Assembly: GCF_001677475.2 (NCBI RefSeq)
Contig: NZ_CP015229.1
Reading direction: 5' to 3' (one strand)
Source of the DNA: Escherichia coli
GTDB taxonomy: Bacteria > Pseudomonadota > Gammaproteobacteria > Enterobacterales > Enterobacteriaceae
Length of the DNA: 64,000 nucleotides
The notes below the pieces were generated by a model. The model was not told where the DNA came from. It did no database searches and saw only the letters and a program-made list of their open reading frames with translations. Shown piece after piece: positions 47,689 through 52,623 of the stretch. Within the stretch, counting starts at the first letter, position 1. Every line of letters begins with the position of its first letter. A program made the position numbers and the translations under genes.

Positions 47689-48132
47689 ATGACCAGCCTT
47701 TACCGTATTCAGGAGGGCAGCTTTGCCCTGCCTGAAACTTTTCTTGATCGCACCGTCAATATCTTCGTCCCGTCGGGCAATGAGAGGGCAACTCCCAGTC
47801 TGAATATTTCCCGCGACACGCTCAGGCCCGAGGAAAACCTGACCACCTACATTGACCGCCAGATAGCCTTGATGAAAAAAAACCTGGGTCAGCACCGGGT
47901 ACTTTCGCGGGGAACGGCAGTGGCGGGAACTGGCGAAGCTGCCATGGCAGGTGAACAAATTCTCGCAACTCACCGTTCTGGAAAAACAGAAGTGTATCAG
48001 CGTCAGGCCGGGTTTATCACCGGGCCAGGAAAGGTTCTGGTGTTAACCCTGACCTGTCAACGTCCTTTTGATGAGCATACTGACCAGCTATGGACTGTCT
48101 GGTTGACCAGTTTTCAGCCCGCTAAGAGTTAA
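47689..48132 (+). CDS. eagR: DUF1795-family Eag chaperone (EagR-like) for the downstream prePAAR-Rhs effector
   Basis: 147-aa ORF between vgrG and rhs; size and position typical of Eag chaperones. Confidence 0.6.
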
Positions 48133-48152
48133 AATAACATGGAGGTTTTGTC

Positions 48153-51100
48153 ATGTATGAAGCCGCACGGGTGGATGACCCCATCTACCACACCAGCGCC
48201 CTTGCCGGGTTTTTAATTGGGGCGATCATTGGCATTGCCATTATTGCCGTTGCCGCCTTTGCTTTTTTTACCTGTGGCTTTTTAGCCGGGCTGGTGCTGA
48301 GTTTTCTGGCTGACCAGATAGCGTCCGGGGTGCTACAACTGGGAGAAGCCATCGGGCGCTCGATACATTCCACTGCGGGAAAAATTCTGACCGGCTCTCC
48401 CAATGTCAGCACCAACAGCCGACCTGCTGCTCGGGCCGTACTGAGTACGGTGATATGCGAAGACCATTCCCCGGAAATCCGCATTGCTCAGGGATCCGGC
48501 AACATCTACATCAACAGCCAGCCCGCCGCCCGTAAGGAGGACCACACTGAATGTGATGCAGTGATTGAGGACGGCTCTCCCAATGTCTTCCTCGGCGGCG
48601 GTACGCAGACGGTGCTGGAAATCAGACCGGAAATCCCTGACTGGTTGCGTCAGGTGGTGGATGTACTGTTTGTGGTCGCCGGAATGCTTGGCGGGCTGGC
48701 TGGCGCCTGGCGTCAGGCGGCAAAGCTGGGCTCGAAATTTGGCACAAAATGCGCGGCCAAATTTATTGGTGGCGAAATTACCGGGATGGCCGTTTCCGAG
48801 GTCGCTATGGGGTTGTTCAGCAACCCGGTGGATGTCACGACCGGGCAAAAAATCCTGTTGCCGGAGACAGATTTCACCCTGCCGGGCCGTCTGCCTGTCA
48901 CCTGCTCACGCTTTTATGCCAGCCACCTGGAAACAGAGGGAGTTCTGGGTAGAGGATGGCGGCTGAACTGGGAGATAAACCTGCGCGAAGATGAGGCATA
49001 TATCACCTTCATCGGAGTACAGGGCCGGGAGCTGAGTTATCCGAAAGAAATGCTGACGCCGGGCCATCAGATATTCGACCCCGAAGAGCAGTTTTACCTT
49101 AGCCGCCTGCATGACGGGCGCTATGTGCTGCATTACACCGACCGCAGCTATTACGTGTTTGATGAATTTGATGACTACGGCGTCGCGCCGTTACTTTTTA
49201 TGGAGACGCCGCACCGGCAGCGAATTGCTTTCGGGCGTGAGAACGGCAGGCTGGTGCGGGTGGCTTCCAGCAGCGGGCACCATTTGCTGTTGCACCGCAC
49301 GTTGACGCCGGCAGGAGAACGACTTTCGCATATTGAGCTGGTGAAGGGCGGGCGTCCCGGTAACCTGGTGGAATATCGTTACGATGATAACGGGCAACTG
49401 ACCGGTGTGGTGAACCGGGCCGGTGTGACGGTGCGCCAGTTTGCCTATCAAAATGGCCTGATGACAGAGCACCGCAACGCGACGGGCTTCACCTGTACCT
49501 ACCGCTGGGAAGAAGTTGAGGGTTTTCCCCGTGTGGTGGAGCACTCGACCAGCGACGGCGAGGATTACAGGTTCCACTATGATTTTGCTGGCGGGCAGAC
49601 GGTGGTAACCGGCAGGTCAGAGCAGAAGTGGCAGTGGTGGTTTGATGAACAGACGTATGTGACCGCGCATCGGACGCCGGGCGGCGGGATGTACCGCTTC
49701 ACCTACAACGAAAACCATTTCCCGGTGGCGGTGGAACTCCCCGGCGAACGCAGGGTAACGCTGGAATACGACACCCTGAGCCGGGTGGTGAAAGAGACGG
49801 ACGCGGCAGGGCGGATGACACAGACGCAGTGGAACGGCAGTTTTGCTGAAATCACGCGCCGGGCACTGGATGACGACCACGTATGGAAGGCGGGTTACAA
49901 CGAACACGGCCAGGTGATACGGGAGACAGACCCGGAAGGGCGCGTCACGCGGTACGGGTATGATGAACAGGGGCTGGCGGTCAGCCGCACGGATGCGCGG
50001 GGCGGCGAGGTTGCGCTGGTGCTCGATGCGCGCGGTCAACTGACGCGTTACACCGACTGTTCAGGGCGCACCACGGATTATGAATACGATGAAGACGGCA
50101 ACCTGACAGCGGTGACGGACGCAGAAGGGAAAACGGTACGCATCAGCTATAACCGTCTGGGGCTGCCGGAGACGGTCAGCCACCCCGGTAAACAGCAGGA
50201 CCGTTACACGTGGAATGCGCTGGGATTACTGAGCAGCCACCGTCGCATCACGGGCAGCGTACAGTCCTGGCAGTATACGCCGCGCGGCCTGCCGGCAGTT
50301 CACACGGATGAAGAGAAACGGGCGACGCGCTGGCAGTACACACCGGAAGGTCTGGTCGCCAGCCTGAGCAACGGCAACGGGGCGCAGTACCGGTTCAGCC
50401 ACGATGCGGACGGGCGGCTGACGGGAGAACAGCGCCCGGATGGCCTGATACGGATGTTTGTGCTGAATGCGGGCGGCCATCTGGCGCTCATCCAGACGCA
50501 GGGCACAGAGGGCGGGGTGCGTGATGAGCGGCAGGAGCGTGACGCGCTGGGCCGCCTGTTGCGCAGTGACACGCAGCACAGTACACGGACCTTCAGCTAC
50601 AACCGTCTTGACCAGATAACGGAAGTGACACTCACTCCCACGGAAGAAGGGGAACGGCTGCATCACGTGCAGCCGGACACGGTGCGCTTTGCGTATGACC
50701 GCAGCGGGTGGCTGACGGCAGAGCGCAGCGTGCATGGCAGCATAACGTACCGGCGTGACGCGCTGGGTAATCCCACGGACATCACCTTACCGGACGGTCA
50801 GCACCTCAGCCATCTTTACTACGGCAGCGGGCATCTGCTCCAGACGGCGCTGGACGGCATCACGGTCAGCGAATATGAACGTGACAGCCTGCACCGCCAG
50901 GTGATGCGCACCCAGGGGGCGCTGGCGACGTTCAGCGGGTACAACGCCGACAACCGGTTAAGCTGGCAGCGCAGCCTGATAACCGGCAGCCGGAACCCGC
51001 CGCAGGCTGACACACTCCCGTCCCACGGCGACAGCGTGACGGCGCGGGATTACATCTGGAACGCAGACGGTGAAGTCGGCGGCATCAATGACAAACTGCG

Positions 51101-52295
51101 CGGCTGCCTGGTGTTCAGCTATGACCGGAGCGGCTGGCTGACCGGGCGCACGGGTCAGATGTACGACCATGACCATTATTATTACGATAAAGCCGGAAAC
51201 CTGCTGAAGGATGAGTATCAGAGTGCGGTGATGGACAACCGCCTGCCGGGCTACGCGCGTGACAGCTACCGCTATAACGAATGGGGTGAACTGACAGAGC
51301 GGCGTGAGCAGCAACTGGCGTGGAACGCGCAGGGTCAGTTAACGCGGGTTATCAGCAGCAACAGCGAGACGCGGTATCAGTACGATGCGCTGGGCAGGCG
51401 CATCAGCAAGGCGACATATGGCCGCCATACGGACCAGAGGGAACAGCGGCGGACGACGTTTGTGTGGGAAGGATTCCGGCTGTTGCAGGAGACAACGTGG
51501 CAGGGAAAGCGGACGTACCTGTACGACGCGGAACAGCCATACACGCCGGTGGCGGCCATCACGGGGCGCGGAGAAAGCCGGAAAATCTGGTATTACCACA
51601 CGGACCTGACGGGCACGGTACAGGAGGTGACGGCGTCGGACGGGACGCTGGTGTGGGCGGGCTACCTGGCGGGATTTGGAGAAAACCGGGGCGACATCAG
51701 CAACAGCGGGGCGTACTTTGAGCAGCCGCTGCGGCTGCCGGGGCAGTATTATGATGAAGAGACGGGGCTGCACTATAATCTGTTCAGGTATTATGCGCCG
51801 GAGTGCGGGAGGTTTATCAGCCAGGACCCGATAGGGCTGGCGGGTGGATTAAACTTATACCAGTATGGGCCTAATCCGCTGGGCTGGATCGATCCGCTTG
51901 GATTAAGTGGCGAAGATGTCTTTATTCATTATACGGATAAAGAAGGTTTTGAACGTATAATGAACTCTGGAGTTATCGAACCAAATTCAAAAGGTAAAGT
52001 TTATATTAGTGATATATTGATGTCTCCCGATGATGTTATGAGAGATATTTTTATAGGTAATTCCAGACATGCAGGGCGTGGTGATTATGCTATTATATTT
52101 AAGGCTGACTCCGCGCAGATGAATAACATAATCAGGAGTTCTGAATTAGAATATATACATTCTGGTCGATTAAAACTTGGTGAAATACTTTATGCAAGTA
52201 AGAATCCGTACCACATAATATCCCACTTGCCTTATGAACAGAGATTAAAAATGATGCAGAACCAAGTAAAATCCAGAGGAGGTAAATGTGGTTGA
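48153..52295 (+). CDS. rhs: prePAAR/PAAR-Rhs polymorphic toxin with C-terminal toxin domain of unrecognised family
   Basis: 1380-aa ORF; prePAAR motif [12 protein letters not shown] helices, PAAR region, YD repeats, DPIGLAGG…DPLGL boundary; last 129 codons (51906..52292) sharply AT-rich. Confidence 0.9.
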
Positions 52296-52623
52296 GCAAA
52301 AAAATAAGAATTTGTTGTTAAATCAAGGGGAAGTGGCGGCTTTAAAGAAAGCCATTATGTACCTGAAGTTTTCATGTGAAGAAACAGAATCTTTATTATA
52401 TGCGGGAAGTCCTCTTATTAACTCTGTATTCGCTAAACTATTAGATATTGATGATTTAGGACAGCAAGCAAAGGAGTTCTACAGTAAAAAGCATGCTCAA
52501 AATGAAAGATTTATTTTAGCAAAGCTGAAAAAATCGGAAGAGGAAGATGATATAATACTTAGTAAAGAGACAAGAGAGAAATTTTTTGAAGATTGTCTCT
52601 ACCCGTTTACTAAAAATGAATAA
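52288..52623 (+). CDS. Candidate cytoplasmic immunity protein for the Rhs C-terminal toxin
   Basis: 111-aa AT-rich ORF; GTG start overlaps rhs stop with aggagg RBS 7 nt upstream; no signal peptide. Confidence 0.5.

Follow-up and report, generated by a model that had tools for sequence, protein, structure and literature searches.

A 64,000-nucleotide stretch of Escherichia coli DNA (contig NZ_CP015229.1 of assembly GCF_001677475.2), referred to at its full length as the window, carries four co-directional genes on its open reading frame (ORF) map, which encode VgrG, a 147-residue chaperone, a 1380-residue Rhs protein, and a 111-residue protein. The locus is very probably an antibacterial type VI secretion system (T6SS) module of the Tre23/Tri23 family, which pairs an rRNA ADP-ribosyltransferase (ART) with a Tri23-type binding protein and mounts them on a chassis resembling that of Salmonella pathogenicity island 6 (SPI-6; SciW/Rhs1-type). 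This assignment draws on the homology and predicted fold of the proteins, on conserved residues, on synteny, and on the mobility of the cassette; the activity, the target, and the way in which immunity works are inferred from experiments on Tre23 and Tri23.

Tre23 forms the C-terminal domain of Rhs1 (Plu0353) from Photorhabdus laumondii and has been assigned to the Tox-ART-HYD1 family (PMC8661411); the ART-HYD1 group was defined in 2012 by Zhang et al. (PMC3482391). In the cytoplasm of E. coli it acts as a toxin; changes to His8 or Tyr33 inactivate it, and it arrests translation only with NAD+. The toxin ADP-ribosylates helix 44 of 23S rRNA in the GTPase-associated center (approximately nucleotides 1095-1098) and lowers EF-G GTPase activity, and its partner Tri23 (Plu0352) neutralizes it by binding, with no repair of the adduct (PMC8661411). 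Cryo-electron microscopy of the VgrG-EagR-Rhs1 assembly reveals the toxin inside the YD shell and two aspartyl autocleavages (PMC8636562).

The toxin tip of the window Rhs protein consists of exactly the 129 codons that follow the DPLGL motif (Rhs residues 1252-1380, nucleotides 51906-52292, + strand). GC content drops from 0.602 in the rest of rhs to 0.346 precisely after DPLGL and is 0.321 in the downstream ORF. Similarity to other E. coli rhs genes ends at the same boundary (positions 1-110 of a query spanning 51800-52700). An earlier reading made from the letters of the window alone (the sequence-only reading) had described an AT-rich, swapped tip of 129 codons, and these values agree with it. 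The same reading placed the toxin in no recognized family, which does not hold. A profile built from the tip plus its homologues matches the PDB sequence 7pq5_L ("Tre23") over the whole domain (E = 4.7e-71, profile positions 2-154), and the pairwise identity is 62.5% over 128 residues (E = 1e-57), computed after reverting the two engineered Tyr-to-Ala changes of the 7pq5 construct. Tre23 itself was characterized in 2021 (PMC8661411, PMC8636562). The predicted structure of the toxin has an ART fold and is modeled confidently (pLDDT 89). By sequence comparison the tip is a clear Tre23 homologue, and homology, conservation, and the model together predict a Tre23-type ADP-ribosyltransferase toxin. 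Entries counted as independent support are the CNF ART-like domain, DarT, the pertussis-, diphtheria-, and cholera-type toxins, TreX, and RhsP2.

Pfam Tox-ART-HYD1 (PF15633) is the sole consistent Pfam match of the tip. The sequence-only reading had proposed such a check of the last 129 residues, and it returns only this weak match (E = 1.2e-3 to 1.6e-3, 19.4-19.8 bits), which covers model positions 3-73 of 97. Close homologues behave similarly, with 7 of 22 scoring at E ≤ 1e-3 and 21 of 22 at ≤ 0.1; the corresponding counts for distant relatives are 3 and 13 of 30. Only 25 relatives of the tip, 52-80% identical, were retrieved in a word-indexed search of 5.8 billion proteins, and each of them, from Enterobacterales or Pseudomonas, is either an Rhs C-terminus or a small orphan ORF. 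The nearest homologues (75-80% identity) include one Salmonella Rhs fragment. A full hidden Markov model search of 1.84 billion cluster representatives yields a wider family of 206 relatives at E ≤ 1e-3, eight of them at ≤ 1e-30.

Rhs residues H1259 (nucleotides 51927-51929) and Y1284 (52002-52004) align with His8 and Tyr33 of Tre23 and are invariant in the Tre23 clade. Comparison of 18 clade members, each with 55-80% identity to the window toxin, gives 26 positions without variation. Wider-family conservation was scored on the 99 of the 206 relatives that span the core. Toxin residues H8 and Y9 are each kept in 98% of these representatives, T10 in 93%, Y33 in 65%, E82 (E1333, nucleotides 52149-52151) in 86%, G87 in 90%, and N100 in 99%. 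The predicted H-Y-[EDQ] triad is thus H1259, Y1284, and E1333. The name "HYD1" suggests D68 of the FKAD motif as the third catalytic residue, and this residue is invariant in the Tre23 clade but unconserved more widely; E1333 is favored because E82 is conserved across the wider family and D68 is not. The sequence-only reading could name no catalytic motif, although the H-Y-[EDQ] residues are present and the ART-HYD1 group has been known since 2012 (PMC3482391). Its tentative suggestion that the HYT segment is ADP-ribosyltransferase-like was nevertheless well placed, as the triad begins with the His of IHYT.

The domain ends in a 27-residue basic helix (toxin residues 103-129, nucleotides 52212-52292, + strand) that is common to Tre23 and contains invariant Q120, R124, and C128. 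Most wider-family representatives (89 of 99) stop at about position 102, within five residues of their protein C-terminus. The helix marks the Tre23 clade, because only 4 of the 99 wider relatives extend into it. It may steer a generic ART core to the GTPase-associated center and, separately, the Enterobacteriaceae branch of the Tre23 clade, which includes the window toxin, may have diverged in acceptor site or substrate, although we regard these ideas as long shots.

The 111-residue protein is encoded immediately downstream by a Tri23-family immunity gene (52288-52623, + strand), an assignment based on homology, synteny, and modeling. Its GTG start codon (52288) lies five nucleotides past a GGAGG ribosome-binding site located within the end of rhs (52278-52282, + strand), and the two genes overlap by eight nucleotides; translation of the immunity ORF is therefore probably coupled to that of rhs. 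The protein has no hydrophobic N-terminus and is predicted to be cytoplasmic, so the coupled cytoplasmic immunity gene of the sequence-only reading is retained. No Pfam or NCBIfam match was found, even at E ≤ 10. The predicted structure is a confident all-α bundle of six helices (pLDDT 92.5), for which searches identified no specific structural neighbor and no macrodomain or ARH-like match. Such an all-α fold, with no macrodomain or ARH resemblance, fits binding-type immunity as published for Tri23.

Synteny connects the two proteins across genera. Scanning one genome per species in 100,044 species gave 17 Tre23-clade loci, found in Photorhabdus, Xenorhabdus, Serratia, Leclercia, Mixta, Brenneria, Pseudomonas, Snodgrassella, and Caballeronia. 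All 17 of these loci from other genera contain an ORF of 107-119 residues that overlaps or abuts the toxin stop codon and is homologous to the 111-residue protein (28-67% identity, E = 4e-54 to 5e-16). The P. caribbeanensis locus encodes a toxin 100% identical to Tre23, and its partner ORF shares 28% identity with the window protein (E = 3e-17); this partner is the Tri23 orthologue and stood in for the Plu0352 sequence in our comparison. Immunity proteins diverge much faster than their toxins, which plateau at about 60-67% identity, whereas the partners fall to 28-57%. The immunity proteins of the Enterobacteriaceae branch are approximately 28-35% identical to their Photorhabdus, Xenorhabdus, Pseudomonas, and Snodgrassella counterparts. 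Judged from these alignments, the 111-residue protein is a divergent Tri23 homologue.

The delivery genes conform to the EagR-prePAAR-Rhs architecture that the sequence-only reading had described. The upstream vgrG gene (45452-47665, + strand) encodes the 737-residue spike protein that carries the Rhs effector (NCBIfam TssI/VgrG, E = 1.3e-166); in identical loci this protein has Pfam Phage_GPD, Phage_base_V, and Gp5_trimer_C matches. It is followed by a gene for an EagR/SciW-type chaperone of the DUF1795/DcrB fold (47689-48132, + strand), which matches SciW, the Salmonella EagR (PDB 6xrr_E/6xrb, E = 2.5e-67), and more distantly EagT6 (E = 4e-6), with Pfam DcrB/DUF1795 matches in identical loci. 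The rhs gene (48153-52295, + strand) encodes a prePAAR, transmembrane domain (TMD), PAAR, YD shell, and toxin in that order. Its exact product is WP_244585965.1, annotated as [quoted passage not shown], and Pfam prePAAR_I, PAAR_motif, RHS_repeat, and RHS all fall on the Rhs protein of identical loci.

The prePAAR motif, of the form AARxxDxxxH, occupies Rhs residues 4-13 (48162-48191, + strand; also matched by Pfam prePAAR_I), and the first 59 residues match the prePAAR-TMD peptide of Salmonella Rhs1 bound to SciW (6xrr_J, E = 8.4e-27). A hydrophobic transmembrane region follows at residues 11-61 (48183-48335, + strand), with a Kyte-Doolittle peak of 2.81 in a 19-residue window; a second hydrophobic stretch spans residues 165-186. 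All the features that the sequence-only reading had described are found at the coordinates it gave. Binding of EagR to the transmembrane region next to prePAAR has been demonstrated in homologues (PMC8636562), and by analogy residues 11-61 are the predicted EagR-bound part. The PAAR domain comprises residues 76-147 (48378-48593, + strand; NCBIfam T6SS_PAAR_dom, E = 3.5e-7, and Pfam PAAR_motif), and YD repeats lead to the Rhs-associated core at residues 1184-1251 (NCBIfam Rhs_assc_core). The AARxxDxxxH motif, one N-terminal transmembrane region, PAAR, and an adjacent DUF1795 chaperone place the protein among Class I prePAAR/Eag effectors. The delivery features of Rhs proteins (the DPxGL motif and the EagR and VgrG gene order) are present by sequence, and cleavage and loading are predicted from them.

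The core ends at DPLGL (Rhs residues 1247-1251, 51891-51905, + strand), the predicted C-terminal aspartyl autocleavage site; a second motif, DPIGL, begins at residue 1225 (nucleotide 51825). Cleavage of Plu0353 needs D1338, the equivalent of the DPLGL aspartate here (PMC8636562). The N-terminal autocleavage motif differs. Its counterpart in the window is N224-PVDVTTGQ (N224 plus residues 225-232; 48822-48848, + strand), compared with D288-PVYVASGE in Plu0353 (PMC8636562), such that both acidic residues (D288 and the Glu of SGE) are replaced by the amides Asn and Gln. N-terminal processing of this Rhs protein may be absent or may rely on other residues. An alignment indicates that P. protegens RhsA, a functional Rhs protein, likewise lacks the D/E form of the motif.

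The tip and its partner also move together. The window segment 51825-53611 (+ strand), which comprises the last part of the Rhs core (DPIGL onward), the toxin tip with its immunity gene, a SymE-like gene, and flanking DNA, constitutes a mobile cassette that is 95.9% identical over 1.8 kb to a segment in another strain (L025, positions 145-1941; GCA_012294705.1). The L025 segment begins with the first base of the DPIGL codons, lacks an upstream Rhs core, and resides at a different chromosomal locus beside DUF1722 and photolyase genes. Its toxin has an in-frame premature stop in the C-terminal helix, and its immunity protein is identical in sequence to that of the window. L025 has the typical form of an orphan toxin-immunity module, and its extent shows which unit is exchanged. 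The SymE-like gene (52673-52966, - strand; NCBIfam PRK13605, E = 1.8e-12, and Pfam SymE_toxin), a homologue of SymE-family type I toxins, lies 50 nucleotides downstream of the immunity gene and moves with the cassette to the L025 locus.

Neither the tip nor the immunity gene occurs in 5,426 complete RefSeq E. coli genomes, where only the Rhs-core and SymE edges match, and a common E. coli allele is rejected on this count (0 of 5,426). Several draft assemblies and metagenomes do contain the identical locus, with 99.7-99.96% identity across 6.7 kb. The sequence-only reading had proposed comparing Rhs tips in related genomes. The Rhs chassis, eagR included, is present at about 91% identity in 19 of the 5,426 complete genomes, where it carries other tips. 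Strain PapRG-06-5, for example, has unrelated sequence past DPLGL, followed by a 206-residue ORF. Clustered at 90% identity, the Rhs protein groups mostly with Escherichia marmotae sequences, whose ends are annotated as DUF6883, HNH/EndoVII, or DUF4329.

Taken with the work on homologues, these features suggest how the module would operate. EagR would shield the transmembrane region beside the prePAAR motif, and prePAAR and PAAR would together cap the VgrG spike encoded directly upstream, as they do in homologous systems. The YD-repeat shell is expected to enclose the 129-residue C-terminal domain, which would be released by aspartyl autoproteolysis after DPLGL (residue 1251), and T6SS firing would bring the toxin to the target bacterium's cytoplasm. 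There the toxin, using NAD+ and the predicted residues H1259, Y1284, and E1333, would ADP-ribosylate helix 44 of 23S rRNA, within the GTPase-associated center; the adduct would block EF-G GTPase activity and translation elongation. The helical 111-residue protein, encoded by the overlapping and coupled ORF, would bind the toxin and so protect the producer, leaving any adduct in place. The 23S rRNA gene in the window has the canonical 58-nucleotide E. coli sequence of the GTPase-associated center (helices 43/44; 9506-9563, + strand). Since the producer's own rRNA has the canonical Tre23 target, self-protection is needed, and producer ribosomes should be sensitive if the immunity protein is missing.

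Several points weigh against this interpretation. The target is assigned through 62.5% identity to one single characterized member, the third catalytic residue E1333 is predicted from conservation alone, and the window sequence on its own gives a borderline Pfam match (score 19.4-19.8). With no more than 28% identity between the immunity protein and the Tri23 orthologue, cross-protection, and even the mode of binding, could differ. Finally, the Asn and Gln that replace Asp and Glu in the N-terminal motif mean that release from the shell may deviate from the Photorhabdus scheme.

A rival reading makes the tip an active Tre23-clade ART whose acceptor has shifted, either to a different site in rRNA or another RNA or to a protein, for instance a translation factor, as with TreTu. 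In its favor, an identity of 62.5% falls short of near-identity, the immunity protein has diverged to 28%, and a single family member is characterized. This alternative is nonetheless unlikely. The whole domain aligns with Tre23 without large indels and includes the clade-specific helix that so few wider representatives reach (4 of 99), the 26 invariant positions persist across 18 members at 55-80% identity, and enzymes more than 60% identical usually keep their substrate.

An ART fold could instead serve an NAD(P)+ glycohydrolase that kills through NAD+ depletion, like Tne2 or Tne5, and Tne5 is indeed an ART-fold Rhs tip that acts as a pure NADase (PMC13285283). We set this reading aside as highly improbable: Tre23, 62.5% identical to the window toxin, was the negative control in that work and showed no measurable NAD(P) consumption (PMC13285283), the window toxin retains the H-Y-E signature that typifies transferases, and sequence similarity to Tne2 is only 13%. 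Least probable of all is a decaying or non-deliverable relic, an intact tip ORF that is no longer released or fired; the degenerate N-terminal motif (N224-PVDVTTGQ in place of D-PVYVASGE) and the premature stop in the orphan copy L025 point that way, but rhs is an uninterrupted 4.1-kb ORF that keeps all the predicted catalytic and DPLGL residues, the chaperone, vgrG, and T6SS core genes that were found are intact ORFs, the locus is kept at 99.7% identity or more in several assemblies, and the D/E motif is likewise missing from other Rhs proteins that function, P. protegens RhsA among them. With identical or 99.7-99.96% identical loci in several assemblies, the gene looks intact and maintained.

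The closest characterized system is Tre23/Tri23 (PDB 7pq5), which shares with the window locus the gene order vgrG-eagR-rhs-immunity and the Rhs layout of prePAAR, TMD, PAAR, YD shell, DPLGL, and toxin. The toxins align over their full 126-128 residues and have H8, Y9, Y33, and the C-terminal helix in common, and the immunity proteins agree in length (111 residues), in family, and in overlapping the toxin stop. The two systems differ in host, which here is Escherichia, and in chassis, as the Rhs core and EagR of the window are nearest to Salmonella SciW/Rhs1 and P. protegens RhsA; they differ further in the 28% identity of the immunity protein and in the N-terminal motif (N...Q rather than D...E). 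The PF15633 family likewise consists of H-Y-[EDQ]-clade ART domains at the C-termini of polymorphic toxins, although its model recognizes the Tre23 clade only weakly (E of about 1e-3). Candidate PAAR-RhsA-Tox-ART-HYD1 effectors have been described in Salmonella SPI-6 (PMC11669294), and they share the SPI-6 kind of Rhs chassis.

TreTu/TriTu of Salmonella Typhimurium Rhs1 (PDB 7zhl, PMC9825190) has a nearly identical delivery module, with the SciW chaperone and the Rhs1 prePAAR-TMD, and its ART-fold tip also blocks translation. However, the toxins are only 10% identical, the target of TreTu is the protein EF-Tu and not rRNA, and the immunity families are unrelated. RhsP2 of P. aeruginosa and the RNA 2'-phosphotransferases Tpt1/KptA have no detectable sequence relationship to the window toxin. 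RhsP2 acts on the 2'-OH of structured non-coding RNAs and Tpt1/KptA removes a 2'-phosphate, both of which differ from the chemistry predicted here.

The family, its activity, target, immunity, and mode of delivery are already published, and this locus adds no new mechanism or principle. Our literature search turned up no publication on this Escherichia member, which is useful chiefly for annotation and as an illustration of toxin-tip exchange. The labels "RHS repeat-associated core domain-containing protein" and "hypothetical protein" could be replaced by Tre23-type rRNA ADP-ribosyltransferase effector and Tri23-type immunity protein, and the Tre23 mechanism, defined by experiment in an insect pathogen, would reach Escherichia as well, carried by a Salmonella-like SPI-6 chassis. 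As an example of tip swapping the locus is clean, with a breakpoint at DPIGL/DPLGL and a cassette that also exists as an orphan module.

Other features of the window concern the surroundings of the module. The T6SS core genes tssA, tssF, tssG, tssH, tssC, tssK, and tssM, together with tagF, lie within the window and are adjoined by a tRNA-Asp gene (19852-19928), a layout that we take to be the aspV-island arrangement. ARAGORN also reports a 94-nucleotide "tRNA-His" (22233-22326, - strand) inside the tssF ORF (22109-23992), which is unusually long and probably a false positive. Downstream of the module, a fragment of an ISAs1/H-repeat-type transposase, so annotated in E. coli matches, lies between the SymE-like gene and yafV (53347-53661, + strand). 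The flanking genes yafV, ivy, and fadE are only about 94.5% identical to the top E. coli matches listed, and for this reason the strain may belong to a divergent Escherichia lineage labeled E. coli.

Between tagF and vgrG lies an AT-rich insert of two genes (GC 0.36; 44343-45427, + strand), which carries no annotation beyond "hypothetical" in E. coli, Shigella, and E. ruysiae and matches nothing in Pfam, NCBIfam, or PDB sequences. The first gene encodes a 233-residue protein with the segment HEAGHVLGYLD, a zinc-peptidase-like HExxHxxGxxD motif, and the second, which overlaps it by four nucleotides, encodes a 128-residue protein with a signal-peptide-like N-terminus. From these sequence features the insert looks like a second effector-immunity pair, one that would act in the periplasm.

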